Assembly (NCBI GenBank): GCA_963836185.1
Contig: CAWIIQ010000002.1
Coordinates: 160,001 to 224,000 of the forward strand
Direction: 5' to 3'
Source: Candidatus Krumholzibacteriia bacterium
GTDB taxonomy: Bacteria; Krumholzibacteriota; Krumholzibacteriia; Krumholzibacteriales; Krumholzibacteriaceae
DNA: 64,000 nt
A program made the position numbers and the translations under genes. The notes below the pieces were generated by a model that was given only the letters and a program-made list of their open reading frames with translations, was not told where the DNA came from and searched no databases. Of this stretch, positions 2,013-40,176 are shown in pieces. How positions within the stretch are numbered: position 1 is the stretch's first letter; every line of letters begins with the position of its first letter.

Positions 2013-3893
2013 TTATTCCTGGTCTGTGCCGTATGCGTCACGATTCTTCTCCGCCCACTCCAGCATCCCCTTCCGCGGCCACACGATGATGTAATGGACA
2101 GGCTTGTACTTGCCTTCCATGATGAGCAATGTCCGTTGCGGCGAGTTGGCAGCCGCCAGCCTAAGGTCCTGTTCGCTCGTTCCGATCGGATATACCCTTC
2201 CGCCGTTCTGCTCGGGTATCTGCCTGAGGTGAGCCAGCCCGGGGCTGAGCTCCTCGAGCAGCGGATCGTAGAACCAGCTTCCCCCGATCATTCCCTTTAT
2301 CCGTGGATAGCGTTTCAGGAGATCGGCGATATTGAGGTAGCAGCGGATCCATCCTTCCTTGCTGAAGTTCTTTCTCAGGTACCTCATGTCGAGGTGGATA
2401 CTGTAGAAGGGCTTCAATCCCTTCATCTGCCTGACGGTATAGCTCAGTCCATCGATGAACTGCCCCACCCCGCCCGTGAACAGGAACTTGCTTCCGATCC
2501 CCGATTCTTCCACGAGGAACCCGACGGGGACCAGTCTAAGGCTGCAGACGGCCAGGTCCTTGCAGAACCGGTCTTTCCTGTAGTCGTAAAACTCATCCTC
2601 CATCAGGCCGAAATCTTCGATGATCCTCTCGAACCATTCGCCGTACAGCTTGTTGATCTTCTCCGGAAGACCCATGTTTTCCAGGATGGGGATCGAGTCC
2701 CTGATAAAATGCGCCATCGCCGTCTTCTGATACAGGGCGATGCCCCTGATCCCGCAGGATGCTTCAATATCATCAAACGCCGCCACAAGTTTCGGGCTGG
2801 TGTTCCGGTAGAAGTGTCGCCGCCTGTACGATCTCACTATCCCGGAGTATCGCTCGATCGGGTATTTCCGGAGGACATCCGGGGTGATCCGCAGGAGTTC
2901 CCCTTCGAGGGTTCCGATCGCCTCTTCGGCCCTGGCAGCGATGCCCGCCATCTCCGGAGTCGTCTTCCTGTATTTGTCCGCCCACGCTATCAGATCTTTC
3001 CTGTTCCACAGCATCATGTGGCCGGTCGGTCTGTACTTTCCCTCTTCGTACAATCTTTTTCTCGTCGGAGACTTCAACGTCGAGAGCCTTATGTCCCTCG
3101 CGCTGGAACCGGTCTTGAAGAATCGCGCGCGGCGCTTCTCGGGGCGTTCCCTGAGATAGGCCAGTCTCGGGCTGATCCTGCTGATCTCCGGATCATAGAA
3201 CCAGCTGACGGCGAATAACCCCTTGATCCGCGGATTGGCCTTCAGCATCTCGGCGACCCTGACAAAACAACGGTCACGTCCATCTGAGTTGAATTTGTCC
3301 AGATACCGCATATCCATATGTATGCCGTAGAAGGGGTGGAATCCCCTCGTTCCGATCACTGTTCGGTACATATAGCAGAAGAATTGCTTTATCCCGCCCG
3401 ACAGGAAATGTCTTCTGCTCAGGCCGGCTATCTCTGTCAGTTCACACCCGACCGGGGTCATACGCATGCTGCAGACCCCGAGGTCCTTGCAGAAGAAATC
3501 CTGCTCGTGATCATAGAACTCGTCCGGCTGTTTCGAGAAATCATCCACGATCCTCTCGAACCATTCGTAATAAAGCCCGGTGATATCGGCGGAGAAACTC
3601 GTAGAGGGAAGCCTGTCGATCGTCCTCTTGATAAAGGAAGCGAGGGCCAGCTTGTGATAGAGGGTGATGCCGGGCTGGCCGTATTCGGCCCTGATGCTCT
3701 CAAAGGCCGCCGTCAGCCTGAAGGGGAAATCCCTGTACAGGTACAGTTCGGGGAGCGACTCGATCTCATCTATATACATCTCGATGGGGAATTTCGTGAG
3801 AAAGTTCTCATCGAGCCTTTCGAGGCCCTCTTTAAACGAATCTATCCGGCTGTCGACAAGGGCTTCAGTCAGCATCAAAGGCTCCAGACGCAA
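2013..3893 (-). CDS. Protein of two tandem ~300-aa repeats, possibly a GNAT-like acyltransferase
   Basis: Each half carries FCKDLxVCSxRxxPVG, IHxDMRYL, SWFYDP and EGKY[RK]P. SWFYDP resembles the SWLLDP motif of GNAT_C-type acyltransferases. Confidence 0.6.
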   Translation of the reverse strand: MRLEPLMLTEALVDSRIDSFKEGLERLDENFLTKFPIEMYIDEIESLPELYLYRDFPFRLTAAFESIRAEYGQPGITLYHKLALASFIKRTIDRLPSTSFSADITGLYYEWFERIVDDFSKQPDEFYDHEQDFFCKDLGVCSMRMTPVGCELTEIAGLSRRHFLSGGIKQFFCYMYRTVIGTRGFHPFYGIHMDMRYLDKFNSDGRDRCFVRVAEMLKANPRIKGLFAVSWFYDPEISRISPRLAYLRERPEKRRARFFKTGSSARDIRLSTLKSPTRKRLYEEGKYRPTGHMMLWNRKDLIAWADKYRKTTPEMAGIAARAEEAIGTLEGELLRITPDVLRKYPIERYSGIVRSYRRRHFYRNTSPKLVAAFDDIEASCGIRGIALYQKTAMAHFIRDSIPILENMGLPEKINKLYGEWFERIIEDFGLMEDEFYDYRKDRFCKDLAVCSLRLVPVGFLVEESGIGSKFLFTGGVGQFIDGLSYTVRQMKGLKPFYSIHLDMRYLRKNFSKEGWIRCYLNIADLLKRYPRIKGMIGGSWFYDPLLEELSPGLAHLRQIPEQNGGRVYPIGTSEQDLRLAAANSPQRTLLIMEGKYKPVHYIIVWPRKGMLEWAEKNRDAYGTDQE

Positions 3894-6038: not shown

Positions 6039-7166
6039 ATGAATGACAGCCGATTACCGATAAGAGTGATGTTTGTCGTGCCGTGCTTCGGGTACGGGGG
6101 CCTCGAGCAGGTCATCCTGAACATCGTGAGGGACCTGGACCGCTCGAGGTTTACGCCTTCGTTCTGCTCCCTTGTCGTTCCTGAGCCTGGCCTGTTCGAA
6201 GATCTTAAGGCACTCGACCTCGGATGCCACATCATCGAGAAGGGCGACGGCATAAAGCCTTCCCTGCCGCTGAAGCTCGGCAGGCTTTTCAGGGCCGAGC
6301 GGATAGACATCATAAATGCCCATGATATCGGCGCTACGATATATGCGGCGCCCGCTGCCCGGCTCGCCCGGACCCCCGCGTTCATCCACACCGATCACAG
6401 CCAGATCCTGGCGAAAACGAAATACCCAGGCGTCTACAGATGGATATGGAAGAACCTCGTCGATTACTCGATAACAGTCTCGGAGGATCTTGAGCGGCAC
6501 CTGGTCTCGAGGTACGGGGTGGATTCCGGCCTGGTACGCACAATACCGAACGGGATCGATACCGGCCGGTTCGCCGGCGGCGGAGGCACCGGCGAACTGC
6601 GGAAAGAACTCGGGATAAGCGAGGGGGACAGGGTGATAGGGACGATAGGGAGGTTGATGAGGCAGAAAGGGATGCCTTACCTGCTCGAGGCCTTCAGAAT
6701 ACTGCGGCAGGGAGCTTCCGATACGACACTGGTCATCGTGGGAGACGGCGAGGAGAGGGCCGGCCTCGAGCAGCGCGCCCGGGAACTCGGCATAAGCGAC
6801 AAGGTCGTCTTCGCGGGGATCCGCAGGGATATTCCCGATCTTCTCGCGATGTTCGACATCTTCACCCTCGCGTCGTTATGGGAGGGGCAGCCGATCACGA
6901 TCATGGAGGCGATGGCCGCGGGAAGGCCGATCGTCGCGACAGACGCGGGAGGCAGCGCGGAGGTCCTCGACGACGGAAGGTGCGGCATCATCGTGCCGGT
7001 CAAGGATCCCGGGGCCCTGGCCGGATCGATCCGGTCTCTCCTCGACGATCCGGAACTCGCGGGCAGGTTCGGCGAGCGGGCCCGGGAGCGCGCGGAGGCC
7101 GAGCTCAGCTCTGCCGCGATGACGAGGAAGTATGAAGATGTCTTCGGATCTGTCCACGGCAGGTGA
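6039..7166 (+). CDS. Glycosyltransferase family 4
   Basis: GGLEQV, IPNGID, GRL..QKG, SLWEGQPITIMEAMA.G.P motifs. Confidence 0.92.
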   Translation: MNDSRLPIRVMFVVPCFGYGGLEQVILNIVRDLDRSRFTPSFCSLVVPEPGLFEDLKALDLGCHIIEKGDGIKPSLPLKLGRLFRAERIDIINAHDIGATIYAAPAARLARTPAFIHTDHSQILAKTKYPGVYRWIWKNLVDYSITVSEDLERHLVSRYGVDSGLVRTIPNGIDTGRFAGGGGTGELRKELGISEGDRVIGTIGRLMRQKGMPYLLEAFRILRQGASDTTLVIVGDGEERAGLEQRARELGISDKVVFAGIRRDIPDLLAMFDIFTLASLWEGQPITIMEAMAAGRPIVATDAGGSAEVLDDGRCGIIVPVKDPGALAGSIRSLLDDPELAGRFGERARERAEAELSSAAMTRKYEDVFGSVHGR

Positions 7167-7255: not shown

Positions 7256-8323
7256 ATGGATGATATTCACATCAAGCTGGGCTCGTTGCCCGTCCGGATA
7301 AGTTCAGACGACGGGGACTTTCTCGAGTATACCCTCAGCCATTTTGCGCCCGTGACGATCGATCCGCCTGCACGGTGCGCCGTCGAGGCGCGCTTCACCC
7401 GGGGCCCCTGCGAAGAGGAGCAGACCGCGCTTGCCCGGTACGACCGGATCGGCAGGGGGATCTACACCGATGGAAAGACTGTGATCTGGAACACGGTCCC
7501 GTATTTCCCCGCGATGACGATGAGCTTCCTGTTCGAGGGAGAGACGCTGGCCGTCAGGGCGTATCAGAATACTTCCGGATCGATGAAAAGCACGGTGAAG
7601 AATCTCGTCAGAGCGATCTACGGCCAGTCGGAGAGCAGGAGCGTCTTCTATTTCGAGCTGCTCTACTATCTCGTCTACTACCCGGTGTTCCGGATGCTTT
7701 CCGACAGGGGGATCCATGCTCTTCACGGCGGCGGGATAGAGGCGCGCGAGAAGCGCATCGTGGTGGTGGGGGCACAGGGAACAGGCAAGTCGACGCTCAT
7801 AGCCAACCTGCTCGCCGGGTCCGGTTCGCGTTTCCTCTCCGACAACATCATCCTTTTCGACAGCAGGAGGGTGTATTCATGTCATGAGCCGGTACGCCTC
7901 GATACAGGCATGCTGGATAATGATCCCCTGCTGAGGGAGATGGTGTCGAAGATCGACCTGGATGTGCCTCTAGGGCGGACGGCTGGAAATGTCCGCCGGG
8001 AATCGTATATCGAGTCGATGGAGCCGGATATATTCATCATACCGAGGATAACCCGGTCGGCGACATCGCTCGAACCGTGCACGAAAGAGGATGTAGTCCG
8101 AAAGGCATTGTATTTCAACAGTCTTGCCGACGAGGTAAGATCCTTCGATATATTCGCCTCGGTCCTCGGGCAGGTCTTTCCCCCGAAGCTGCCTCCCTGC
8201 AGCGGGGCAGAGGCCCTCAGCGCGCTTCTTGAGGGCAGGGAGTTATACGAACTCGGCATCGGATACGGTGAGGATCCCGGGGTGACCGCGCGTGCCTTCA
8301 TCGAGAGTGTGACCAATGAGTGA
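7256..8323 (+). CDS. HPr-kinase-related P-loop kinase
   Basis: LHGGG...GAQGTGKSTL...LSDN matches the HprK-type LH...GxxGxGKS...DD pattern. Confidence 0.75.
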   Translation: MDDIHIKLGSLPVRISSDDGDFLEYTLSHFAPVTIDPPARCAVEARFTRGPCEEEQTALARYDRIGRGIYTDGKTVIWNTVPYFPAMTMSFLFEGETLAVRAYQNTSGSMKSTVKNLVRAIYGQSESRSVFYFELLYYLVYYPVFRMLSDRGIHALHGGGIEAREKRIVVVGAQGTGKSTLIANLLAGSGSRFLSDNIILFDSRRVYSCHEPVRLDTGMLDNDPLLREMVSKIDLDVPLGRTAGNVRRESYIESMEPDIFIIPRITRSATSLEPCTKEDVVRKALYFNSLADEVRSFDIFASVLGQVFPPKLPPCSGAEALSALLEGRELYELGIGYGEDPGVTARAFIESVTNE

Positions 8324-9746
8324 TGACAAGATAAAGCTGCTCTTTGACGAGTCCTTCGATCCCGACGAGAGGCTGATCGCCTCGCTGAAGGATATAGCCG
8401 GTATCGACGACGTGCATATGGTAGTCGGCATGGTCGACCTGCACCTGAAGAAGAATACGGAGAATCCCTCGAGCGTCGCTATCGCGACGCGCGAGAGGCT
8501 CATCCCCAAGCTTTCAAGCGTGGCCCAGAACTGCGGGATGGCGATCGCGGCGACAAATCTCACGACGGGCGATGCCGGGGTGGAGAGGCTGGAGGAGCTC
8601 TTCGGCAGGATGAGGGCCGAGGATGACACGCTTATGCGGCACCCGGGGATGAGCGTCGAGGATATGAGAAGGGCCGCGTGCCTCGGAGCGCCCTGGGCGG
8701 CGGAAAAGGCGGGGCTCCCCGTTGATTTCCCGGAAAATATCGAGTTCGGGGGAGCCGTCGGCAGGACCGATCTGCTTTCGTGGAAGGAGCTCGGGAAACT
8801 GGTCCCGCGTTATTCCCTCGATCGCGGAAGGTACGGGTTCGGGGTGATTCCGGCCGGCAACCATTTCCTGGAGATACAGGCGGTGGACGAAGTGATCGAC
8901 GGGGAAGAATGCGAAAGGCATGGTATCCGCGAGAACGGGATCATGATAATGATCCATTCCGATGGAGGCCTCATATCAGACGATATAGGAAACCTGTACG
9001 GGAACCGGACGACCGCGAAGGGATACATCAGGGCTCTTTATAACGTAAGGAAGACGGCCCTGCATCTTCGCGACTGGCGGGGGGTGGAGAACTGGAAGGA
9101 AAAGAAGGAGTATTACTTCGGCGCTGGCAGGTATATCCAGATCTCCCCAGGGACGGATGAGGGGAAGCGGTTCCTCAAGGCGAAGGACCTTTCGATGAAT
9201 GCCGGGTATGCTTCGAGAGTGACTACGATGGGAAGGGTGAAGAGGCTCATGGGAGAGGTCTTCCCCGAGGGGCCGTTCGATATGCGACTGCTCTGCGATT
9301 TTTCACATAATTCTATTTTCCGCGAGACGATCGACGGCAGCCCCGTGTGGGTGCACCGTCACAACGCGTGCAGAGTCGTAGAAGGACAGCTCGTATTTCT
9401 GCCCGGATACAGTAATACATCTTCGTATATCTGCGCAGGTTCTTCCGGCGCCCGCGATTTCCTCAACACTATGGATCACGGGGCCGGGAAGACGATAGAC
9501 CGGTTGAAGAAGAAGGGACTCGTGCGTGAGCTCGGAAACGGACGCGTCACGAGGAGCTACAACAATGAGTCACCGGAACCGAAACAGGTCCCTCATGTGT
9601 CCGACGAAGGCATAGACGCGGTTATCGAATCACTGGGCCGTAACGATATCGTGAGGCCTGTCGCGAGGCTGAGGCCCATGGCCGGTTACCGCTATCTCTG
9701 GAAGGGCCGGCTGGCACGGGCACGAGAGAAGATAACGGCCGGCTAG
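8316..9746 (+). CDS. Diverged RtcB-family (GTP-dependent ligase) protein
   Basis: RtcB motifs in canonical order: DLH, NCGM, GNHFLEIQ, MIHS, SHN, VHR, LPG, HGAG, LRP. Start overlaps the kinase stop. Confidence 0.8.
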   Translation: MSDDKIKLLFDESFDPDERLIASLKDIAGIDDVHMVVGMVDLHLKKNTENPSSVAIATRERLIPKLSSVAQNCGMAIAATNLTTGDAGVERLEELFGRMRAEDDTLMRHPGMSVEDMRRAACLGAPWAAEKAGLPVDFPENIEFGGAVGRTDLLSWKELGKLVPRYSLDRGRYGFGVIPAGNHFLEIQAVDEVIDGEECERHGIRENGIMIMIHSDGGLISDDIGNLYGNRTTAKGYIRALYNVRKTALHLRDWRGVENWKEKKEYYFGAGRYIQISPGTDEGKRFLKAKDLSMNAGYASRVTTMGRVKRLMGEVFPEGPFDMRLLCDFSHNSIFRETIDGSPVWVHRHNACRVVEGQLVFLPGYSNTSSYICAGSSGARDFLNTMDHGAGKTIDRLKKKGLVRELGNGRVTRSYNNESPEPKQVPHVSDEGIDAVIESLGRNDIVRPVARLRPMAGYRYLWKGRLARAREKITAG

Positions 9747-9758
9747 GGCGCTGTAAGG

Positions 9759-10397
9759 GTGTTGTTGCGGACTATGAACCAGACTGGCGGCGGCGAATAT
9801 AAACTGCTCTTTCTCCTGCCCGTTTTCCCTGACACAGGCAGGGTCCTCCTGCTCGACATCGGATCAGACAGCCTGGAGCGGCGGCTCTCCGCAATGGGGA
9901 TAGAATGCCGCACGGGAAGCGTTGATGACGTGTCGCGGGATGACGCCGGCGCAGGCAGGTTCGATTTGATCGTCGCAGGCAGGATGCCGTCGGGCCGCCG
10001 GGCCATGGATATGTTCAAGCGATCGGTCGGCGGCCTTCTTACAGGTACCGGCTGGCTGGTCGTCGTCTCGCCGAACAGGTTCGGATACTCGAGGCTGGCG
10101 GGCAGAGGCGGGGGCGGCGCTGGCAGCTCGCTCGGCGCGATGCGGGGAATGGTTAGAAAGATGGGATTTACCGACATCCACATATATTCTCCGGTCCCGG
10201 ATACGGCCAATCCATCGGCCTTCATCTCGCTTTACGGATCGAATTCGCTCGAGTTCCTTCTCGGGCAGTTTCCCGATTTTATCTCGGCCCGGTCGGGCCC
10301 CGTAAGGGGTATCCTGTCGTTATTGATACGGACCGGCATATTCAGGTACGTCCAGAATTACTACGCGATAGTCGCCGGCGGGCGGGAACAGGTGTAA
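9759..10397 (+). CDS. Class I methyltransferase-fold protein, probably degenerate
   Basis: VLLLDIG, FDLIV and LL...GWLVVVSPNR pattern; glycine-rich SAM motif I is incomplete (DIGSDS). Confidence 0.5.
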   Translation: MLLRTMNQTGGGEYKLLFLLPVFPDTGRVLLLDIGSDSLERRLSAMGIECRTGSVDDVSRDDAGAGRFDLIVAGRMPSGRRAMDMFKRSVGGLLTGTGWLVVVSPNRFGYSRLAGRGGGGAGSSLGAMRGMVRKMGFTDIHIYSPVPDTANPSAFISLYGSNSLEFLLGQFPDFISARSGPVRGILSLLIRTGIFRYVQNYYAIVAGGREQV

Positions 10398-10411
10398 GAA
10401 ACAGGATCCGC

Positions 10412-11416
10412 ATGTTGTTCTATCTGAAAAATATGATCGCCGAACGCCTCGGTATCCGCGACACCGATGAAGCTGTGGTGACGAGGGTAGAGGCAGGCAC
10501 AAAAGCGGTCCTCTTCTTCTTCCTCGAGAGGGGAAGCATCGTGCCGTCTATCGTAGTCAAGGCGGCAAGCGATCCCCGTTTCAATGATGAGCTGCGCGGT
10601 GAAAGTGCGAACCTAGGATACCTCAGGGATATACTTTCAGATGGCCTGGGCGGCGGCGTTCCCGCAGTCGAGGCCGACGGGGAATGGATGGGGCTGTACT
10701 ACTACGCCCAGCGTTATTTTCCCGGTGTCATGCTCGACGAGACGATCGACGACGTCGAGCCTTCCGGGGAGGGGACTGGTCCCGGGAGGGGATTACGGGC
10801 CGCCTGGCGGTGGCTTGATGATTTCCAGGAAGCGACGGCGTCGGAGCCGGTCATGCTCGGCCGGTCCGGTCTCGATATCTTGTTCGGCTCGTACAGGGAA
10901 GCCTTCGCCCCGGAAGGGGACGAAGCGGCATATCTCGGCAGTCTCGAGAAGAGGCTGGCGGACCGCCATGAAGGGGAGACAGGCATGTCCGCCTGTCACG
11001 GGGACTTCTTTCCCGGGAATATCATCCTGTCCGGCGACCGGGTGACCGTGATCGACTGGCGGTTCCTGCGCAGGTCGTACAACCGGTTCTTCGATTTCTT
11101 CACCCTGCTCCTGACGTTTTACGCGTCCGAGGGTGGAGTGACCGACTATGATGATCACGAGGGGCATTTCAGGAGACTTTTCTTCGAGAAGCACTGGACC
11201 AACGATCTGTTCTCCGGTCTCTGCCGCGAGTTCCTGGAACGAAACGGGACCGATGCCGGACTGTTCGGACTGATGCTTGAACTGACCCTTCTCGAGTGGT
11301 CCGTCAGGGAGTTCAGATCCAGCGGAACGACAGGGGAGATGGACATCATCTGGCGCACGAGATTCCTGTACCACATGAATAACAGGGATCGCTTCATCCT
11401 CGGGAGCGTGGAGTAG
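10412..11416 (+). CDS. Aminoglycoside phosphotransferase / choline-kinase-like kinase
   Basis: VVK lysine, CHGDFFPGNI catalytic loop, VIDW metal-binding motif. Confidence 0.85.
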   Translation: MLFYLKNMIAERLGIRDTDEAVVTRVEAGTKAVLFFFLERGSIVPSIVVKAASDPRFNDELRGESANLGYLRDILSDGLGGGVPAVEADGEWMGLYYYAQRYFPGVMLDETIDDVEPSGEGTGPGRGLRAAWRWLDDFQEATASEPVMLGRSGLDILFGSYREAFAPEGDEAAYLGSLEKRLADRHEGETGMSACHGDFFPGNIILSGDRVTVIDWRFLRRSYNRFFDFFTLLLTFYASEGGVTDYDDHEGHFRRLFFEKHWTNDLFSGLCREFLERNGTDAGLFGLMLELTLLEWSVREFRSSGTTGEMDIIWRTRFLYHMNNRDRFILGSVE

Positions 11417-11419
11417 GCG

Positions 11420-13537
11420 ATGTCGAATGCGCGGAAAAAGATACGTATTTTCTCACCCCGGGAGATTGCTTTCAGGCTTTCCGAGAAGGTGCGTTTCCGC
11501 CGGGAGAGACGAGGGAAGAGGCCGCAGGTCGAGATCACGCGGGAATACCACGGCCTGAAGGACAGGTTTATACCCGTGGGGCTGTTTCCGTTCACGGGAG
11601 AGAAGGAATCGGTATGCGGCATGTGGCGCGAGGTTTTCCCCGGATCGGCAGAGGGAGAGATCGCTCTCGCTGACGGTATTCTGGAGAACCGTATTCCCGT
11701 CTTTTCGGAAAAGGTCGACTATGGCGACAGGGTGGACTGGCACCTTGATCCGGTCTCCGGGACGAGGTCGCCCGTGGTCTTCTACCGCGACATAGATACC
11801 TTCGATACATCGGTGGCGGGAGATCCCAAGCGTATCTGGGAACTCAACAGGCACGATTTCTTCATCCATCTCGGGAAGGCATACTGGATAAACGGCGATG
11901 TCAGGTATTTTGATAAATGGCGCGAATTGATCGTGTCGTGGGTGGAGGAGAACCCGTACCACATGGGGATCAACTGGGAGAGCAGCCTCGAGATGGCGTT
12001 CAGGTCGATCAACTGGATATGGTCGTCGTACTTCTTCGCGGACCGGCTGGAGGCCGACAGAGAGCTCCAGGAGCTGATTTTCGAGACTTTGTACCTGCAG
12101 GCGGACCATATCAGCAATCACCTCTCGTATTTTTTCAGTCCCAACACCCATCTGACAGGGGAGGCGCTGGGGCTCCTCTACATCGGCAGGGTGTATCCCG
12201 CGATGAAGCCCGCTGCCGCCTGGGTCTCGACGGCGGTCGATATCCTCGAAACGGAACTCGAAAAGCATATCCTCGAGGATGGCGGATATTTCGAGATGGC
12301 GACCTACTATCACAGGTACACGATCGATTTCTACCTGCATTTCTTTCTTCTTTCGGGCGGGGTCGACGGCCCGGGCCTGAAGAGGAGAGAGTATTTGAAG
12401 AAGATGGTCCGTCACCTCGTCCTTCTCTCGGAACCTGACGGGACTATTCCCCTGCTGGGCGATTCAGACGGCGGCCGGCTGCTGATGCTCGATGACCTGA
12501 AACGAAATGTCAGTGGCGCATGCTGCAGCGCGGCTGTGATACTGGGAGACGGTGAGCTCAAGTCGCTCTGCGGCTCCAGGTTCAGCGAGGAGACGATGTG
12601 GCTCCTCGGAACGGGGAGCAGGGAGAGGTTCGATGGACTGGCTGCCAGGCCGCCGGTACATTTCCATTCGATCAATGACAGTACGGGCCTGTACTGCTTC
12701 AGGAGCGGGATGACGGAGGATGACTCGTACACCCTGATCGACTGCGGTCCGCACGGCTGGAAGGGATGTGGGCACGCGCATGCCGACCTGCTCAGTTTCA
12801 TATGGTACAGCGGGGGGGAGATGGTACTGACCGATCCCGGCACCTTCACATATACAGGATCGCGGAGTATCCGCGATCAGTCCCGCAGCAGCTTGAGCCA
12901 CAACACCATCTCGGTCAACGGGCGCTCGCAGTCCGTTCCGGGAGAGCCGTTCAGGTGGAAGAGCGTCGCTGCCCCGAAATATGCCCGTGTCAGGGTAGAC
13001 AGGGAGTGCGGGAGGTTCGAGGGAGAGCACGACGCCTGGGAGGAGTTCGGCTGCGGCCACAGGAGATCGCTCTACTTCCTCGGCTCCTCCCTGACCGTGG
13101 TGATCGACGAGCTCAGCGTCTCCGGGCCGCTCGATTCGATCCTGTATAACCTGCAGTTCGGCGACGGGAAACTGAGCGAACTCAGCGGCGGCATTTTCAG
13201 GTTCGATGGAAAAGGGAGCGGCGGGAGCCGGTACGTAAGGATAATCGCCGGAGAAAAGGTCAGGGTCGACATCCGCGAGGGAGCGTTCTATCCTGACTAC
13301 GGGAAGAGGGTAGCGGCGCCGAGGCTCGAAGTGACAGCAGACCGCATCACCGAAGACCTGATGATCGTCACGCTGCTGAGCCCTGATGAGGAACTGGCCG
13401 GCAGTTTCCGGTGGAAGGATGGCCGCCGGATGGAAGGGTCCTCGCGGGCGGGCAGCTACATGCTGGAGTGCCGCGACAGAGAGATAATAGCTTTCAGGGA
13501 CGGAGAACAGGTTCTGCCTGGAAAGGTGCAGGCGTGA
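11420..13537 (+). CDS. Heparinase II/III family protein
   Basis: WELNRH, NPY..GINW, NTH...E, DGG..E...YH, GHAHAD.LS, DPG...Y, HNT motifs. Confidence 0.92.
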   Translation: MSNARKKIRIFSPREIAFRLSEKVRFRRERRGKRPQVEITREYHGLKDRFIPVGLFPFTGEKESVCGMWREVFPGSAEGEIALADGILENRIPVFSEKVDYGDRVDWHLDPVSGTRSPVVFYRDIDTFDTSVAGDPKRIWELNRHDFFIHLGKAYWINGDVRYFDKWRELIVSWVEENPYHMGINWESSLEMAFRSINWIWSSYFFADRLEADRELQELIFETLYLQADHISNHLSYFFSPNTHLTGEALGLLYIGRVYPAMKPAAAWVSTAVDILETELEKHILEDGGYFEMATYYHRYTIDFYLHFFLLSGGVDGPGLKRREYLKKMVRHLVLLSEPDGTIPLLGDSDGGRLLMLDDLKRNVSGACCSAAVILGDGELKSLCGSRFSEETMWLLGTGSRERFDGLAARPPVHFHSINDSTGLYCFRSGMTEDDSYTLIDCGPHGWKGCGHAHADLLSFIWYSGGEMVLTDPGTFTYTGSRSIRDQSRSSLSHNTISVNGRSQSVPGEPFRWKSVAAPKYARVRVDRECGRFEGEHDAWEEFGCGHRRSLYFLGSSLTVVIDELSVSGPLDSILYNLQFGDGKLSELSGGIFRFDGKGSGGSRYVRIIAGEKVRVDIREGAFYPDYGKRVAAPRLEVTADRITEDLMIVTLLSPDEELAGSFRWKDGRRMEGSSRAGSYMLECRDREIIAFRDGEQVLPGKVQA

Positions 13538-14696: not shown

Positions 14697-14745
14697 TGTC
14701 TGATATTTATTGCGGAGAAACAGGAAATCGGTCCGGGGGAGAACC

Positions 14746-16610
14746 ATGTGCGGCATATTCGGGATATATAGCCTGGACGGGCGCGGCGTCGATGAGCGGG
14801 AATCGGCGCGCATGCTCGATTTGCTGTCTCACAGGGGGCCCGACGGGAAAGGGACCTTCTGCGATGATCGAGTATTCCTCGGGCACGCGAGACTCAGCAT
14901 CATAGATGTCGAGGGAGGCAGCCAGCCGATCTTCAGCGAGGACGGGAACATCGCCATAGTCGGGAACGGCGAGATCTACAATCACGAGGAACTGCGGCGC
15001 GGCCTGATCAGCAGGGGGCACACTTTCAAGACGCGTTCCGATATCGAAGTGCTCGTTCACCTCTACGAAGAGGAGAAGGAGGGTTTTCTCGACAAGCTCA
15101 ACGGGATGTTCGCTTTCGCCATCTACGACAGGAGGGCGGGCGAGCTCTTCATCGCGCGTGACAGGATAGGGATCAAGCCGCTTTACTACTATTATGACGG
15201 CGGCAGACTGATCTTTTCATCCGAGATGAAGGCGATCATCAAGTCGGGACTTATCCCTCTCGAGGTAAACGATACCGTCGTATACCAGTTTCTCACGCTT
15301 CATTTTTCCGTGCCTCCTGATACCCTGATCAAGGGGATCCAGTCGCTGAGACCGGGTCATTACATCTTCGCCGGACGCGGGGAGCCGCAGCAGAAGCAGT
15401 ACTGGGATATCAGCCCCGACCCGGACGAACCGCCCCTGCCTCCCGCGGAGTCACTCCGGGAAGTCGAATCGCTTCTGATCGATTCGGTCGAGAAGAGACT
15501 GATGAGCGACGTGCCCCTCGGGCTTTATCTCAGCGGCGGGATAGACTCGAGCCTCATCGCCGCGCTGATGCACAATATGGTAGGCGACGGGATAAAGACC
15601 TTCTCTATCGGTTACCGCGAAAAGGAATACTCTGAGCTGCCCTGGGCGAAAAAGGTCAGCGAGATGATCTCCTCCGACCATACGGAAGTCATCGTCTCTC
15701 CTGACGAGATAAAGCACAATATCGAGGATGTCATATGGTACCGCGAGACACCGATCTCCGAGCCCGCTGATATCCCGATATTCATGCTCAGCCGGGCCGC
15801 GGCGAAGAAGGTCAAGGTCGTCCTTACCGGGGAGGGGGGGACGAGGTATTCGCAGGATACCACAAGTATGTCTTCGAGGACTGGGCGCGCAAAGCGGCGC
15901 TACTGAGGAATCCAGCCGCACGGGCGATGCTGATGAATCCCATGGCGCAGAAGATGTTTCCGCAGAGGATCAATACAGCCCTCGATCTCTTTTCGGAGAA
16001 GGACAGGTTTCGAAGGTACTACAGGTGGTTCAGCTATTTCAGGGACGAGGAGCTGCGCGGCATGGTCAAGCCCGGGAGGGCCGGATTCGTGTCGGGAAGG
16101 AACTTCTACAGGGAGATAGCTGGGGACAGGAGATTCAGGAACGGCCTCGACGAGATGCAGTATCTCGATGTCAAGGTATGGCTGCCCGATAACCTCCTTC
16201 TCAGGGGAGACAGGATGTCGATGGCTTCCGGCCTGGAGGCTCGTGTGCCCTTTCTCGATCACAGGCTCGTCGAGCTGAGCTATCGCCTCGGCATGTCGAT
16301 GAAGGTGAGGAAAAATTCAGGCAAGTACGTCATAAAGAAGATCGCCGAGAAATATCTTGATAAGGAAATAATCTACCGGAAAAAGGTTGGTTTCGCCGTG
16401 CCGGTCAGCGACTGGCTGCGGACCGACCTGAGGGATTTTCTGCAGGATCATCTGACGCGGAGCAATTCGTTCAGCGGAGGGATCTTCAGGAAAGAGAGTA
16501 TTGAGACGATGATCGACGACCATGCGTCAGGCAGGATGGACAACCACAAGAAGCTGTGGATCCTTCTTAACCTTGAGCTTTGGTACGACCAGTTCATCGG
16601 CGGCGCGTAA
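14746..16610 (+). pseudogene. asnB: Asparagine-synthase-like glutamine amidotransferase, frameshifted at a G7 tract (15834-15840)
   Basis: MCGIFG, HRGPD, NGEIYN, LSGGIDS in the first frame. LTGEGG|DEVFAGY needs one extra G. GLEARVPFLDH and RKKVGF follow in the second frame. Could be a sequencing error. Confidence 0.88.
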
Positions 16611-24682: not shown

Positions 24683-25696
24683 TCAGTCGTCAGCCTGTTC
24701 GATCGCTTTGGCCAGGCCTTTTCTCACGTTCTGGACAAGTTTGGCGTTGGTCTCTTCCTCTAGGCGTTCGATGGCCTCTTCACGTTCCATGTATCCTCCG
24801 CGTACGAGACCGGCCAGCTCGAACGCGTACGGATGGTAACCGAACCGCTCCTTGTGGACATCGATCCCGAGGGAGTTGAGCTGACAGTTCGTCGAGTTTG
24901 GATCGGTGTCGTCCGGCTTTTTCCATCCGAACGACTTGATCTTCTCCAGGATCTCTCTCTCATCGTATTCGAGGAATGCCAGCGGGCTGACGTTATGCGG
25001 GAAGCGATCTTCCATGGCGAAGTGCTCCTCGGTCAGGAAGTAGTTATCTATCTCCGGCCCCACGACGGCGTGCATCGGCCCGGTGAGCTGTTCCTGCATT
25101 CCCCTGATCATCGAGGGATTGTTCGGGAAGATCGACGCTTCGATGGGAGCCTGTCCCGGCGACCACCCGTAAGTGATCAGGGGGATGTTTCCCTCGATCG
25201 CCAGGCGGAGCGCTATGAACTTAACGATCCCCATGCAGGTCGTGCATATCGAACTGGCCCTCTCGAGCCCTTTTTCGGTGTAGATGTCCTCGTCGGCGCA
25301 CCGGAGGAAGAGCTTGCTGATCAGGTCGAGGCGAGGCTTAAAGATGATGTGGTCGATGCCGAGTCCCTCGACGACCTTGCGCGAGTTCTCGAGCGACTGG
25401 GGTGAGACGAATCCGTTGTCCATCGTCATGGCGAGGATCGACAGGTCGTACTCTTTTTTCAGGACGGCCATGGTATACGTCGAGTCCTTGCCGCCGCTGT
25501 ATGCCATCAGGGCGTCATAGCCGCCCTTGCGTTTCTTGCTTTCGAGAAGCTTCTCGAACTTGCCCCTGTACTTCTCCATCGATTGCTTGAGCCGTTCGAC
25601 ACCGCGGAACCGCCTGCAGAAATTACAGGCCCCTTCGTCGTCGAACTGGATTCCGGGGAATGTCTCGGGCAGTACGCATTTCGTGCATCTTATCAT
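24683..25696 (-). CDS. N-acetyl-sugar amidotransferase-like N-type ATP pyrophosphatase
   Basis: CxxC...CxxC N-terminus, PP-loop SGGKDS, CxxC, STNC. Confidence 0.75.
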   Translation of the reverse strand: MIRCTKCVLPETFPGIQFDDEGACNFCRRFRGVERLKQSMEKYRGKFEKLLESKKRKGGYDALMAYSGGKDSTYTMAVLKKEYDLSILAMTMDNGFVSPQSLENSRKVVEGLGIDHIIFKPRLDLISKLFLRCADEDIYTEKGLERASSICTTCMGIVKFIALRLAIEGNIPLITYGWSPGQAPIEASIFPNNPSMIRGMQEQLTGPMHAVVGPEIDNYFLTEEHFAMEDRFPHNVSPLAFLEYDEREILEKIKSFGWKKPDDTDPNSTNCQLNSLGIDVHKERFGYHPYAFELAGLVRGGYMEREEAIERLEEETNAKLVQNVRKGLAKAIEQADD

Positions 25697-25733
25697 CTCG
25701 TTTCCTTTCGTATCGCCGGCTGCGCGCCGGCGG

Positions 25734-26711
25734 TCATCTCATGATGAGCTCGGGAGCGGGCGGCATCGATCTGAGCATTGCCGTAGCGCTTTCCTTTCGC
25801 TCGAAATCTTTCCATGCCCTTGCGACCTGATCGATCGTCATTCCGAGCGATTCCGCGGTCTCTTCCTGGGGAATGCCGTTTCGCCGCGCGTAGAGGATCA
25901 TGTCGGCTGTATCGTAGGACATGCAGAAATAAAAATCCTTGTCGCTCACGGGGAGGCTGTACGTGTCGGGGCTGGGCGTCCTGTCAAGGACCTCCTGAGG
26001 CACCCCGAGATACTCCCCTAGCTTGAATACCTGGCTCTTGTACAGGTTCGTCAGGGGCTCGATATCGACGCCGCCATCACCGTACTTCACGAAGAATCCC
26101 TGTACCGTCTCTGGCAGGTTGGTCGTGCCGCAGACGATGTAGTAGCGTTTTTCGGCCTCGTAGTAAAGCTGGGTCATCCTGACTCTCTGCTTGACGTCGT
26201 TTGCGGCCATCATCGCGAGGTAATCGTCGCGAGCGAGCCGCTTCGATTCTATATCTCCACCCGGCATCTCGAGTTCGAGGTAATATGCGCTTATCCTGTC
26301 CCTGTCGAGCAGGTCCTGGGGAAGGGTAAGCCTGAATCTCTGTCCATCCTCGTAGTCGCTGAAGTACTTTCTGACGATCGTGTTTCTCACGTCGTAGACC
26401 CCGAAGGCCTCGACCATCGGGGTGATCTCGACTTCTTCGCACGCTATGCCGATCTCTGCGGCCACCGAACTGCCGTACTCGCGGCTGACGGGATCGGAGT
26501 CTTTCTCGGGCAGGAGCACGCCGAATACCCTGTCGGCGCCCAGGGCCCGCACGGAGAGCGCGGCCGCGACGGTCGAATCGATGCCGCCGCTGAGGCCTAT
26601 GATTATTCCTTTTCTCCTGAACACGCCCGTGACCTGCTCTCGTATGAAATCCACGAGCTGCCCGGCGACTTTTTCTGCGTCGAAATCAAGAACGCTTCTA
26701 TCGAATACCAT
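25734..26711 (-). CDS. NadE-like amide ligase, ACP-cluster paralog 1
   Basis: GLSGGIDS, KQRVRM, GTTN, FVKYGDG, LYKSQV, PSPDT; large insertion relative to housekeeping NadE. Confidence 0.85.
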   Translation of the reverse strand: MVFDRSVLDFDAEKVAGQLVDFIREQVTGVFRRKGIIIGLSGGIDSTVAAALSVRALGADRVFGVLLPEKDSDPVSREYGSSVAAEIGIACEEVEITPMVEAFGVYDVRNTIVRKYFSDYEDGQRFRLTLPQDLLDRDRISAYYLELEMPGGDIESKRLARDDYLAMMAANDVKQRVRMTQLYYEAEKRYYIVCGTTNLPETVQGFFVKYGDGGVDIEPLTNLYKSQVFKLGEYLGVPQEVLDRTPSPDTYSLPVSDKDFYFCMSYDTADMILYARRNGIPQEETAESLGMTIDQVARAWKDFERKESATAMLRSMPPAPELIMR

Positions 26712-28282
26712 TATTTCAATCCCTTCTTCGTGATCTTTCCCGAAGAGGTCATCGGAAGCGAATCGCGTATTTCTATCTTCCCAGGGACCATGAAGTCCTC
26801 CAGGCTGGCGCTGCAGTGGGCGAGTATCTCTTTCTCGGAAAGCTCCGAGCCCTCGCGCAGCACGACGAATCCTTTTATCGCCTCACCGAGCAGGTCGTCG
26901 GGCACGCCGATCACGGCGGCTTCGACAATCCCGTCCAGGGCGTAGAGCACGCTCTCCACCTCTTTCGGGCTGACCTTCTCACCCCTGCTCTTTATGATAT
27001 CGTCCTTCCTCGACACGAAGTAGAGAAAACCTTCCTCGTCCATCCTGAAGAGGTCTCCCGTGTAGAGTGATTTCTCCCATGGAAAGAGCCCCGCACGCAG
27101 CATCTCCGCCGTCTCCCCGGGCCGTTCCCAGTATCCCTGCATCACGTTCGGTCCCCGCACTACCAGCTCGCCGGTCACGTCCGGTTCCTCGATCAGACGG
27201 CCCTTTTCATCGATGAGGTAGACCTCCTCGTTCGGCATTCCCTTTCCTACTGATGCCGGCCTGCGCTCCAGCTCCGCCGGCGGCAGGTAGGAGACCCGCT
27301 TGCACTCGGTCAGGCCGTACATCGAGTATATCGATGCGCCCGGGAAGATCCGCTGCAGCCCCCTTATATGGCTGACCGGAAGGGCCGCGGCAGTGTTGGT
27401 CAGATATCTCAGCGATGGAAACTCTTCCGTCTCGAGCTCCTTGAGTTGAAGGAGGATCGCCGACATCGTCGGCACTATCGGAAAGCCCGTCACGTTTTCT
27501 TTCTGGAGCAGATTGATCGCCTGGTAAGTATAGTTGAATGATTTCTCGAGTACGACCGTTCCGCCGAACTGGGCCGCCATTATGATCTGGTAGAGGCCGT
27601 AGTCGAACGACATGGCGAGGACGCTCAGGATGATATCGTCCTCAGTGTTATCGAGGTAGGTCGTGATCGATGTGGAGGCCGAGACCATGTTCGTATGTGT
27701 CAGCATCACACCTTTTGGATCGCCTGTGGTTCCCGACGTGTAGACCAGCGCGGCGAGATCGATATCGATCGACCGTCTTTCGGGTCTCGAGTCGTCCTCG
27801 ACTGAAAGAGCTTCTTCCCATTCGATGAGTCTCATCCCGGCCGGCGCCTCTTCCCGGATCCCGTCGCGCATCTTTCCGGCGACGATCAGTGTGTCGAGGG
27901 AGGGGACGGTCCCGATGGCAGCCGAGACAGTCTTCCACCTCGAAGAATGAGTTATCAGAGCTGTGGCGCGGCAGTCGTTGAGTATGAATCCGGCCTTGGC
28001 GGCTTTGGTCGTAGGGTTGATCACGAGAAAGGTCGCGTCCGCCTTCAGGATCGCCCATATCGAGATCACGGCCTCGACCGAGTTGTACGCGAGAACGGCG
28101 ACTCGGTCGTGATACCCCACTCCGCTGCCGGTCAGCGTGCGTGCGAGCCTGTTGGCGCGGCTTTCGATCTCGGAGAAGGTCAGTCGTTCGTCGCCGCATA
28201 TCAGGGCAGTCTTGCCGGGCAGCCTGTCGGCGCTTCTTTCGAGGAATTCTTGCAGCAGCATAACCGGATTCCACGGCGTCAA
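26711..28282 (-). CDS. Class I adenylate-forming ligase, copy 1
   Basis: YTSGTTGDPKG, MYGLTE, TGD, RKDDIIKSRG, SGK. Confidence 0.92.
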   Translation of the reverse strand: MTPWNPVMLLQEFLERSADRLPGKTALICGDERLTFSEIESRANRLARTLTGSGVGYHDRVAVLAYNSVEAVISIWAILKADATFLVINPTTKAAKAGFILNDCRATALITHSSRWKTVSAAIGTVPSLDTLIVAGKMRDGIREEAPAGMRLIEWEEALSVEDDSRPERRSIDIDLAALVYTSGTTGDPKGVMLTHTNMVSASTSITTYLDNTEDDIILSVLAMSFDYGLYQIIMAAQFGGTVVLEKSFNYTYQAINLLQKENVTGFPIVPTMSAILLQLKELETEEFPSLRYLTNTAAALPVSHIRGLQRIFPGASIYSMYGLTECKRVSYLPPAELERRPASVGKGMPNEEVYLIDEKGRLIEEPDVTGELVVRGPNVMQGYWERPGETAEMLRAGLFPWEKSLYTGDLFRMDEEGFLYFVSRKDDIIKSRGEKVSPKEVESVLYALDGIVEAAVIGVPDDLLGEAIKGFVVLREGSELSEKEILAHCSASLEDFMVPGKIEIRDSLPMTSSGKITKKGLK

Positions 28283-28533
28283 GCCGTCGTCTGAGTCTTC
28301 CTGCTTATATAAGCAACGAGTTTGTTTACCGATTCGAAATTATCGGGAATCAGTTCCTTGTCCGCCACCTCTAACCCGAACTCATCCTCGATGAACCCGA
28401 CGACCTCGAGCACACCTGTCGAATCTATGATTCCCACATCGAAGAAGAGATCGTCGTCGTCGAGCGAGGCATCCTCGCTGCCGAACATGAAATTTTCGAT
28501 GATGAAATTCCTGAGTTTCTCTTTCGTATCCAA
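28279..28533 (-). CDS. Acyl carrier protein, copy 1
   Basis: Acidic 84 aa protein with GIIDSTGVLE phosphopantetheine motif. Confidence 0.92.
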   Translation of the reverse strand: MDTKEKLRNFIIENFMFGSEDASLDDDDLFFDVGIIDSTGVLEVVGFIEDEFGLEVADKELIPDNFESVNKLVAYISRKTQTTA

Positions 28534-40154: not shown

Positions 40155-40176
40155 CAAAAGTCCTTTCTTCTTTCTG

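Follow-up and report, generated by a model that had tools for sequence, protein, structure and literature searches.

Organization of the locus

The window, which is the whole stretch of 64,000 nucleotides analysed here from a Candidatus Krumholzibacteriia bacterium, carries four consecutive genes for an HprK/PEPCK-fold protein, a divergent RtcB-fold enzyme, a methyltransferase-like protein and a kinase of the APH/choline-kinase fold (genes 1 to 4, Table 1). An earlier note had described these genes as a co-directional module located between a GT4 glycosyltransferase gene and a heparinase II/III-like gene. This observation is confirmed: the four genes lie on the same strand with an overlap of 8 nt and gaps of 12 and 14 nt, and the identity of both flanking genes is borne out by the open reading frames and by Pfam. 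Probably, the true start of gene 3 is the ATG at 9774, which fits the 207 aa of an identical database protein (P0280), and the gap before gene 3 would then be 27 nt. The same four-gene order is present in two other loci (G007 and L172, 36-59% identity), indicating that the arrangement is conserved and not due to chance. Promoter and terminator scans gave a signal at chance level.

The assignment of the module to a polysaccharide operon is supported by the GT4 genes, a deacetylase, an asparagine-synthase-like amidotransferase, a Wzy_C protein and a GT2 gene in the window. Moreover, a Wzx-like flippase gene is located just to the left of the window (G000:C2:158040-159617). The heparinase II/III-like gene is not conserved with the RtcB-like genes, since its cluster was found in 3 of 89 loci. 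As the note had stated, RtcA, RtcR, archease and Ro are absent among the 19 window proteins scanned (positions 2016 to 26711), and no PF01137 (RtcA) match was detected anywhere in the genome, which is 92.5% complete.

Table 1. Genes of the module, flanking genes and active-site residues of the gene 2 product
Feature	Position	Strand	Description
GT4 glycosyltransferase, context, 5' of the module	6039..7166	+	PF00534 E 1e-43
Gene 1, HprK/PEPCK-fold P-loop protein, 355 aa	7256..8323	+	TIGR04352 HprK-related E 3e-7, far below cut-off
Gene 2, divergent RtcB-fold enzyme, 476 aa	8316..9746	+	PF01139 RtcB E 1e-42, 147 bits
Gene 3, methyltransferase-like protein, 212 aa from GTG	9759..10397	+	no Pfam/NCBIfam match
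Gene 4, APH/choline-kinase-fold phosphotransferase, 334 aa	10412..11416	+	PF01636 APH E 4e-10
Heparinase II/III-like gene, context	11420..13537	+	PF07940, PF16889
Gene 2, residues kept (P. horikoshii numbering = window)			D65=D41, C98=C73, N202/H203=N182/H183, E206=E186, H234=H214, H329/N330=H331/N332, H404=H388
Gene 2, residues changed (P. horikoshii -> window)			D95->A70, R238->G218, K351->H349, R408->K392, K480->R459
Gene 2, clade-specific features			K45, E49, R231, ~25-aa insert after H214

A distinct RtcB-like clade associated with glycan loci

Both the PF01139 match and a Foldseek search with the AF2 model of gene 2 (pLDDT 91.8; RtcB TM 0.65, E 4e-29; every significant match an RtcB) show that the RtcB fold is present, at 22-28% identity to solved RtcBs and to the control loci. 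A separate canonical rtcB was found on another contig of the genome, and the protein encoded in the window is not the RNA ligase of this organism. In the RtcB phylogeny, gene 2 falls in a separate and diverse clade (SH-aLRT 100), whose members are often just 30-35% identical to one another; the tree rules out a recent duplication of the genome's own rtcB. The clade has a patchy distribution over many bacteria, and four of the five carrier genomes checked lack another RtcB. A single sequence cluster, to which the named actinobacterial genomes belong, accounts for 49 of the 63 clade loci. The control set came from a contig scan with a pattern common to all RtcBs, which gave 80 loci, 7 of them from the clade and the other 73 used as controls; a clade-specific pattern had no matches in viral contigs. 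Because gene calling missed many GC-rich HprK-like genes and genes of ~145 aa, locus counts were taken from six-frame profile searches.

Glycan genes were present within 5 kb in 61/63 clade loci and in 0/69 canonical loci, as compared with a genome background of 14%, and they accompany all seven clusters defined at 45% identity. Conversely, archease-like genes were near none of the 63 clade loci and near 29 of 69 controls. A GT4 gene lies within 10 kb in each of the 28 long clade loci, and large secreted-type proteins are encoded in 31 of 89 loci. Two sister-clade loci (G081 and G195) show the order GT4 or contig edge, RtcB-like, HprK-like, histidine phosphatase and GT4. Two deep relatives (G088 and G074) lie among methyltransferase, radical SAM and Mur-ligase-like genes, with no glycosyltransferase, Wzx or Wzy profile match within 5 kb. 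Altogether, the clade very probably has a glycan-related role of some kind.

The earlier note had also proposed a route independent of CDP-alcohol donors. However, in three loci a CDP-alcohol phosphotransferase gene accompanies the RtcB-like gene, in one case with just 228 nt upstream. The route may therefore still involve nucleotide-activated donors. This pairing suggests donor synthesis rather than independence.

The active site is partly conserved and partly rebuilt

The gene 2 product shares with the RtcB RNA ligases, which join 3'-phosphate and 5'-OH ends (P. horikoshii PH1602, E. coli RtcB and human RTCB; PF01139) the His nucleophile and its Asp, the metal-1 ligands, Asn202/His203 and the guanine-reading Glu206, but it differs by the replacement of Asp95, Lys351 and Arg238, by an insert of ~25 aa, by its glycan-locus context and by an HprK/PEPCK-fold partner in place of archease. 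The guanylylated His404 and the metal-1 ligands Cys98, His234 and His329 are 94-99% conserved in 95 core sequences of the clade (H404 95%, D65 95%, C98 94%, H203 100%, H234 99%, H329 98%, E206 98%, S385 98%). At the three replaced positions, the commonest residues in this set are Ser for D95 (58%), Gly for R238 (75%) and His for K351 (81%). Asp95 was found in 1 of 118 homologues having a residue there, against 88% of 52 canonical rows. Lys351 of the HRKG motif, which contacts the gamma-phosphate and corresponds to human K375, is lost, with HRHN in 120/120 of the homologues listed. Arg238 is present in 100% of the canonical rows. Regarding guanine recognition, Glu206 is kept, whereas Lys480, replaced by Arg in the window protein, is retained by 63% of the core sequences; Gln194, Glu446 and Tyr451 are not conserved in the clade.

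The residue census shows that RNA-strand contacts are lost in the clade. Arg238 holds the 5'-OH strand of the RNA; when this residue is lost, sealing becomes slower by 200-fold and guanylylation by 3-fold (PMC8051266). Asp95 is a metal-2 ligand (PMC9745838), and the equivalent change in human RTCB, D119A, leaves weak guanylylation and no ligation (PMC10944509). In the human enzyme the gamma-phosphate is held by D119, N354 and K375 (PMC10944509), and two of these three residues are changed in the clade, so that GTP-driven activation may be poor. Plain GTP-driven ligation, as initially envisaged, can therefore not be assumed.

RtcB-like proteins have no transmembrane segment. In the window protein the insert has a charge of +2 (clade median, +6) and a hydrophobic moment barely unlike that of canonical RtcBs, which makes its reading as a putative membrane-binding element weak.

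The conserved partner and the fusion proteins

The conserved core of these loci is the RtcB-like gene together with the gene for an HprK/PEPCK-fold protein. Of the 27 loci in which the sequence extends >5 kb to either side, 25 have an HprK-like gene within 10 kb, and the other two have a CDP-alcohol phosphotransferase instead. In 32/61 loci the HprK-like gene is directly upstream of the RtcB-like gene. Fusions of the two proteins occur in two lineages, one belonging to the core (P0125) and the other a sister lineage (P0190/P0265), and gene 1 is homologous to the N-terminal half of P0125 and P0265. In locus L183 the fusion is a single 888-aa ORF between a GT2 gene and a Wzx gene. In another RtcB-like homologue (P0165) the fusion partner is a Wzx flippase. 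When longer fused forms were sought, the only matches were four intein-containing canonical RtcBs, which is weak evidence since the search missed a known 996-aa fusion.

Gene 1 has the HPrK/PEPCK fold: it matches the profiles of HPr kinase (1jb1, E 1e-5) and PEPCK, and the top Foldseek matches of its AF2 model (pLDDT 92.5) are PEPCKs (TM 0.51, E 2e-8, ~415 columns). It carries His157, GxGK(S/T)T at 175-180 and Asp196-Asn197. The HPr kinase signature of His, P-loop and DD is therefore incomplete, the second Asp being Asn in 38/38 homologues, and the P-loop Lys is replaced by Arg in 7 of the 38. The partner may therefore lack hydroxyl-kinase activity. TIGR04352 is matched by 17/38 family members, with 30 bits for the window protein against a cut-off of 200. 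The proposal that the kinases create a phosphomonoester finds support in the coupling or fusion of a kinase-fold partner to the RtcB-like enzyme, but the invariant Asn and the PEPCK-like whole fold leave hydroxyl-kinase activity uncertain.

The PsmK/PsmN (pseudomycoidin), LppK/LppN and TIGR04352 HPr-rel-A systems likewise combine an HprK-fold protein with a nucleotide-transfer enzyme, often in polysaccharide loci, and PsmN is required to place hexose on the phosphate (PMC6993621). The gene 1-2 pair differs in that the transferase slot is taken by an RtcB fold, that no RRE or precursor was seen among the neighbours scanned, and that gene 1 has DN in place of DD and lies far under the TIGR04352 cut-off.

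Genes 3 and 4 form an optional pair

The four genes had been regarded as one module. Their order is conserved in relatives, but the APH gene and the methyltransferase-like gene are optional, and 29 of 63 clade loci have an APH gene within 5 kb. Gene 4 has the HGDxxxxN and metal-binding DW motifs; the latter is DWR in the window protein and DWE in 28/35 APH homologues, which were chosen by their HGDxxxxN motif. In 37 of 42 loci, APH is immediately preceded by gene 3 or by a candidate remnant of ~145 aa. The assignment of this ~145-aa ORF as a remnant draws mainly on its position and on intermediate forms in loci L148 and L169; the profile comparison with gene 3 was weak (probability 4.7%, P 0.009).

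The nearest named Atlas clusters to gene 3 are methyltransferases (0.86-0.89), which is a lead only. A methyltransferase function is not supported by the sequence, which lacks a conserved SAM-binding motif, no glycine loop being conserved in 12 close homologues; the motif I region reads LLDIGSD in the window and LLDIESD, FLDFEPG and FAGVEMS in homologues. Gene 3 probably encodes a partner of the APH kinase that has no catalytic activity of its own. The pair recalls WbdD, a methyltransferase-kinase that terminates O-antigen chains, in that a glycan locus carries a methyltransferase-like gene next to one for a kinase-fold protein. The module differs from it by the missing SAM motif, by a methyltransferase-like protein that appears shrunk to ~145 aa in relatives and by Wzx/Wzy-type loci. 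The lack of this motif led us to reject a WbdD-like methyl-phosphate cap.

A putative role in surface-glycan synthesis

The functional interpretation of the earlier note is partly supported. Taking together the clade, its residue changes, its neighbourhood and its fusions, we consider, with a probability of about 0.4, that these proteins carry out the GDP-activation of a phosphorylated sugar or polyol, which is finally incorporated in a glycan as a phosphodiester. The RtcB-like enzyme, within Wzx/Wzy-type loci, would work on glycan precursors and not on RNA. GMP would be loaded on His388 and handed to a small phosphorylated sugar or polyol. The predicted sources of this compound are the HprK/PEPCK-fold partner and, in loci that have it, the APH kinase. 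The phospho-group of the resulting GDP-linked donor would finish as a phosphodiester on a lipid-linked repeat unit. We infer His-GMP chemistry from the conservation of the nucleophile, the metal-1 ligands and most of the guanine contacts, while the loss of RNA contacts and the rebuilt gamma-phosphate subsite point to a non-RNA substrate; the absence of transmembrane segments and the fusion to the Wzx C-terminus suggest action in the cytoplasm before flipping.

The most speculative steps are the last and the first. In loci that encode no other phosphotransferase, the RtcB-like enzyme might itself carry out the final transfer; where a CDP-alcohol phosphotransferase is adjacent, the latter might do so. 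Activation without Asp95 might depend on the new Lys45, Glu49 and His349, on the partner, in the way that archease assists RTCB, or on a diphosphate donor in place of GTP.

The LicA/LicC/LicD phosphocholine pathway and IPCT/DIPPS are nucleotide-activated alcohol-phosphate routes. The module resembles them by its APH/choline-kinase-fold kinase, by the CDP-alcohol phosphotransferase of three loci and by the predicted phosphodiester, but it has no cytidylyltransferase or LicD gene, and its predicted activator is RtcB-fold, His-GMP based and guanine-reading. PsmK/PsmN provide a precedent for an HprK-like kinase and a nucleotidyltransferase giving hexose on phosphate (PMC6993621). That the RtcB fold serves as a stand-alone phosphodiester-forming glycan enzyme, working with a PEPCK-fold partner through His-GMP and joining to a lipid-linked repeat unit beside a flippase, is a more doubtful proposition.

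The pathway could also stop at the donor. HddA, GmhB and HddC lead to GDP-heptose through a kinase and then a guanylyltransferase; likewise, the partner and the RtcB-like enzyme might only make an unusual GDP-sugar for the neighbouring GT4, giving a polymer without phosphate. This is rather unlikely, even if the GT4 genes of all long loci, the gene order in G081 and G195 and the loss of the acceptor-strand contacts required for joining would agree with it: GT4 genes are a common feature of glycan loci of every kind, the gamma-phosphate site required for GTP use is degraded, and the Wzx fusion and the basic/aromatic insert would better suit membrane work than soluble synthesis. Alternatively, the enzyme, lacking Asp95, may form no bonds and instead cleave a sugar phosphate that is cyclic or linked to a nucleotide, or it may bind a guanine nucleotide and thereby regulate the partner and the flippase. 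E. coli RtcB D75A reportedly keeps cyclic phosphodiesterase activity, the partner's catalytic motif is weakened too, and loss of the equivalent Asp cripples guanylylation in human RTCB (PMC10944509). We nevertheless regard this as quite unlikely, as His404, Asp65, five other metal or phosphate residues and Glu206/Ser385 remain 82-100% conserved among proteins of 30-35% identity, which would be more than binding alone usually needs.

The precedent of PsmK/PsmN, which add hexose to phospho-Ser (PMC6993621), raises a further alternative, in which the HprK-like protein phosphorylates Ser/Thr of a protein encoded in the locus; the RtcB-like enzyme, in the slot taken by PsmN in lasso-peptide clusters, then attaches a glycan to this phosphate. 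Cassettes of HprK and an NTP-transferase do occur in capsule loci (PMC13381572), and large secreted-type proteins are encoded in some of the clade's loci. Such protein or peptide phosphoglycosylation is improbable, however: the PqqD/RRE family and PF14907 were absent among the 87 neighbours scanned, a set from ORFs of at least 65 aa (most neighbours beyond it were labelled by cluster), PsmK is inactivated when two Asp residues are both mutated (PMC6993621) and the partner has Asn at one of these positions, and the partner's PEPCK-like N-terminal domain suggests a small-molecule substrate. Finally, an ordinary RNA-repair ligase hitchhiking in mobile glycan loci would account for the RtcB fold, the intact nucleophile, the patchy distribution and the carrier genomes devoid of another RtcB. 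The loss of D95, R238 and K351, the absence of archease-like neighbours, the fusions with a flippase and with the kinase-fold partner, and the canonical copy in the same genome make this very improbable.

In the literature searched, all RtcB activities concern RNA or DNA ends, and no RtcB-type route putting phosphate links into a glycan was found. A large clade that lies in polysaccharide loci and has its own partner besides a rebuilt active site points to an unknown surface-glycan step and a new use of His-GMP chemistry. A stand-alone phosphodiester-forming role of the RtcB fold would, if true, be the first non-nucleic-acid chemistry of the RtcB family and a new way of making phosphate-linked surface polymers, across many phyla. 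The current label 'RNA-splicing ligase RtcB' hides the genes of this clade, one of which is carried by a cultured organism, Kribbella hippodromi JCM 15572 (locus L005).

A conserved RtcB-like system in glycan loci

As the earlier note had it, four closely spaced, co-directional genes follow a GT4 gene and are followed by a heparinase II/III-like one, and the ORF coordinates agree with this arrangement, including the overlap and both gaps (see the table). They encode an HprK/PEPCK-fold protein (the partner), an RtcB-like enzyme, a third protein and an APH-fold kinase. The setting is indeed a polysaccharide locus, with GT4s, GT2, deacetylase, amidotransferases and Wzy_C in the window and a Wzx-like gene directly left of its edge. 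The GC content of the module is that of its flanks, and all four proteins lack a clear transmembrane segment (maximum 19-residue hydropathy 1.05-1.54).

Coordinates of the module and of other features (window positions unless prefixed by a locus name)
Feature	Position	Strand	Remark
Gene 1, HprK/PEPCK-fold	7256-8323	+	8-nt overlap with gene 2
Gene 2, RtcB-like	8316-9746	+	12-nt gap to gene 3
Gene 3	9759-10397	+	14-nt gap to gene 4; may start at 9774
Gene 4, APH	10412-11416	+	
626-aa two-half protein	2013-3893	-	
Split amidotransferase	14710-15906, 15927-16610		frameshift near 15835-15840, at G run
NAD-synthetase-like + acyl-CoA-ligase-like set	24683-28533	-	
NAD-synthetase-like + acyl-CoA-ligase-like set	39165-41727		
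Geranylgeranyl-reductase-like gene	29502-30702	-	
CDP-alcohol phosphotransferase	L164:10473-11270		
CDP-alcohol phosphotransferase	L180:1667-2518		
CDP-alcohol phosphotransferase	L121:11500-12360		
Basic 56-77-aa protein	L114:1044-1271		
Basic 56-77-aa protein	L127, L171, L118, L143, L156, L140, L179		
Deeper RtcB-like lineage	L232:6068-7489		genome G088
Deeper RtcB-like lineage	L233:9067-10512		genome G074

A clade separate from canonical RtcB

A separate canonical rtcB, which the earlier note had proposed to look for, is present: PF01139 is found in two genes of the genome, one on contig C1 (E 5e-154) and gene 2 of the window (E 1e-42). The former is preceded by a 145-aa ORF that, from its motifs, we take to be archease, and a search of this genome (92.5% complete) found no RtcA. 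The window protein is very probably not the RNA ligase of the cell.

A protein search gave 359 matches at E<=1e-10 (8000 candidates scored); in the best 120 of them, 17 besides the query were 47-81% identical and the others 32-38%. Searching 50%-identity representatives with a profile gave at least 150 matches, mostly further divergent forms. An IQ-TREE tree was built from 52 chosen rows, with SH-aLRT support and no bootstrap; its 22 canonical rows were mostly archaeal-type, with 2 other bacterial ones, and left out PrfH-linked RtcB2 and the Myxococcus paralogues. A branch of length 0.72 (support 100) separates all 30 non-canonical rows from the rest, and another of 0.53 (support 100) sets off the 20 core rows, the window protein among them; the canonical copy of the genome groups within the canonical rows. 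The phylogeny proposed earlier thus places the window protein, on sequence grounds, in a separate clade.

The distribution of this clade is patchy. Counting this genome, the gene occurs in 2/41 relatives and, at E<=1e-45, in 8/201 genomes of the phylum; it occurs in none of six other genomes of the genus, and in 13/201 of the order around Kribbella hippodromi. Among the sources named are Actinomycetota, Acidobacteriota, Chloroflexota, Patescibacteria and Ca. Eisenbacteria. Another RtcB was missing in 4/5 carrier genomes checked. A deeper lineage without Asp95, in genomes G088 and G074, has methyltransferase, B12 radical SAM and Mur-ligase-like neighbours and no HprK-like gene within 17-20 kb.

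Gene neighbourhood and partner

A clade-specific pattern, which matched once in the window, never in 100 shuffles and never in the canonical loci set, yielded at least 80 metagenome loci; 80 of these, 7 genome loci, the locus of genome G007 and the window gave 89. A Pfam run on 87 selected neighbours put names to the clusters that recur (Wzx, Wzy_C, Wzz, Bac_transf, DegT, NDP-sugar dehydratase, GT4, GT2, APH and CDP-alcohol phosphotransferase), from which profiles were built and searched in all six frames. In the 63 loci whose flanks reached 3 kb or more (26 shorter ones excluded), a glycan gene lay within 5 kb in 61, against 0/69 canonical controls, which were not taxon-matched (4/73 excluded); 49/63 had two or more glycan families. 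Random 11.4-kb windows of this genome gave 14% and 6%, respectively. Archease-like genes showed the reverse (0/63 versus 29/69). The test loci also served to train the glycan profiles, yet these find 37 GT4, 7 Wzx and 14 dehydratase genes genome-wide; at 45% identity, 49/63 loci fall into a single cluster, and glycan genes occur in all seven clusters. The link to glycan loci, anticipated in the earlier note, is strong.

Within the proposed four-gene module, the RtcB-like and HprK-like genes are the recurrent pair, while APH is optional (within 5 kb in 29/63 loci). The gene-1 family lies within 10 kb in 25/27 loci having more than 5 kb on both sides, and immediately upstream in 32/61. The two are fused in the 885-aa protein P0125 (four full-length cluster members; in L183 the fusion is one 888-aa ORF flanked by GT2 and Wzx genes) and, in a sister lineage, in P0190/P0265; P0165 (two cluster members) joins Wzx to an RtcB-like domain. 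Sister-clade loci of G081 and G195 hold RtcB-like, HprK-like, histidine phosphatase and GT4 genes.

The partner profile matches HPr kinase and PEPCK, and its structure model matches PEPCK across both domains. All 38 partners examined share His157, the P-loop glycines, Asn197, Asp202, Glu211 and Glu293; the P-loop Lys is Arg in 7/38. One family member weakly matches the FomB phosphonate monophosphate kinase family (E 1e-4), a hint that the fold may allow phosphate-on-phosphate transfer.

A rebuilt active site

The AF2 model of the RtcB-like protein (pLDDT 91.8) had structural matches to RtcB only. We compared 52 canonical, 95 core and 37 sister sequences (P. horikoshii numbering). The core keeps D65 (95%), C98 (94%), N202 (96%), H203 (100%), E206 (98%), H234 (99%), H329 (98%), N330 (82%), R350 (96%), S385 (98%) and H404 (95%). 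D95 is replaced, by Ser in 58% and by Ala in the window protein, R238 by Gly (75%) and K351 by His (81%); R190, Q194, R408, R412, E446 and Y451 are unconserved, the window protein having Arg at 190 and 412. Newly conserved are K45 (93% core, 97% sister), E49 (91% core) and R231 (96% core). After His234 comes a segment of 70 residues, versus 45 in canonical proteins, with a median net charge of +6 versus +1 (+2 in the window protein) and 10 aromatics versus 3.

According to published work, Asp95 serves as a metal-2 ligand, and guanine is read by Glu206/Lys480 (PMC9745838); the 5'-OH strand is held by Arg238, and in E. coli R189A the sealing step is 200-fold slower, against 3-fold for guanylylation (PMC8051266). 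Human D119, N354 and K375, converted to Pyrococcus numbers by a constant offset, bind phosphate at the gamma position, where archease supplies a third metal, and D119A leaves weak guanylylation and no ligation (PMC10944509). An overlap between the PPi site and that of the RNA 3'-phosphate has been proposed (PMC3458531). Read against these roles, the census shows that the enzyme retains the side of the alpha-phosphate, the nucleophile and guanine and has rebuilt gamma/3'-end and RNA acceptor sides.

Proposed function

Our best reading, at roughly 40%, is that the enzyme would transfer GMP from His-GMP to a small phosphorylated sugar or polyol; the resulting GDP-linked donor would then pass its phospho-group to a lipid-linked repeat, through the enzyme itself or a CDP-alcohol phosphotransferase. 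The main difficulty is the loss of Asp95. Synthesis of a GDP-sugar for use by GT4 might be considered, although we think it unlikely. A hydrolase or regulator seems somewhat less likely again.

PsmK/PsmN, in which an NTP transferase working with an HprK-like kinase is reported to place a hexose on phosphoserine (PMC6993621), is the nearest working precedent; similar cassettes are described in capsule loci (PMC13381572). A role in protein phosphoglycosylation is improbable, and an RNA ligase very improbable; a small share of the probability is given to no named reading. On three tested features the protein falls outside the RtcB RNA ligases, and its chemistry is probably a related one.

The system is real and conserved, and apparently undescribed: a search among open-access main texts listed no paper that places RtcB in a glycan locus. 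The word 'polysaccharide' does not occur in an RtcB review (PMC10630183), and a search of PMC13247085 for the residue terms yielded no passage.

Optional genes and other observations

No SAM glycine loop was found in gene 3, which the earlier note had called methyltransferase-like. Gene 3, or a conserved ~145-aa ORF weakly resembling its C-terminal half, directly precedes APH in 37/42 loci, and we read the two as a predicted kinase with a non-catalytic subunit. A basic 56-77-aa protein with a C-terminal hydrophobic helix replaces this ORF directly after the RtcB-like gene in several loci; the one member scanned had no Pfam match.

In the two long loci that lack the partner (L121, L164) and in the short L180, a CDP-alcohol phosphotransferase lies downstream, 17-20 nt from the RtcB-like gene in L164 and L180 and 1.1 kb in L121; a nucleotidyltransferase profile has no match in these three loci. 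Their RtcB-like proteins share a 13-row tree group with the window protein (support 93). CDP-alcohol phosphotransferases consume nucleotide-activated alcohol phosphates, which makes the RtcB-like enzyme a candidate supplier. The three phosphotransferases of these loci all have His at what we take to be the position of the last Asp of the family motif.

In L170 and L175, Wzx and a UbiA-family prenyltransferase follow the pair; further along L170 come an FAD oxidoreductase and a PEP-utilising enzyme. A metallo-beta-lactamase + Rieske protein, presumably of CMP-sialic-acid-hydroxylase-like architecture, recurs in five glycan loci (L105, L110, L171, L166, L178), adjoining an unannotated ~300-aa gene in three.

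Within the window, the asparagine-synthase-like amidotransferase gene is split; its G007 homologue is a single 621-aa ORF, and the split is either an assembly error or a pseudogene. The 626-aa protein of the glycan locus consists of two ~300-aa halves sharing 43% identity and has no Pfam or NCBIfam match. A gene presumed from its motifs to be geranylgeranyl-reductase-like is apparently broken across two frames. The minus-strand NAD-synthetase-like set also includes an N-acetyl sugar amidotransferase and a small carrier-protein-like ORF, and is kept beside the module in G007.
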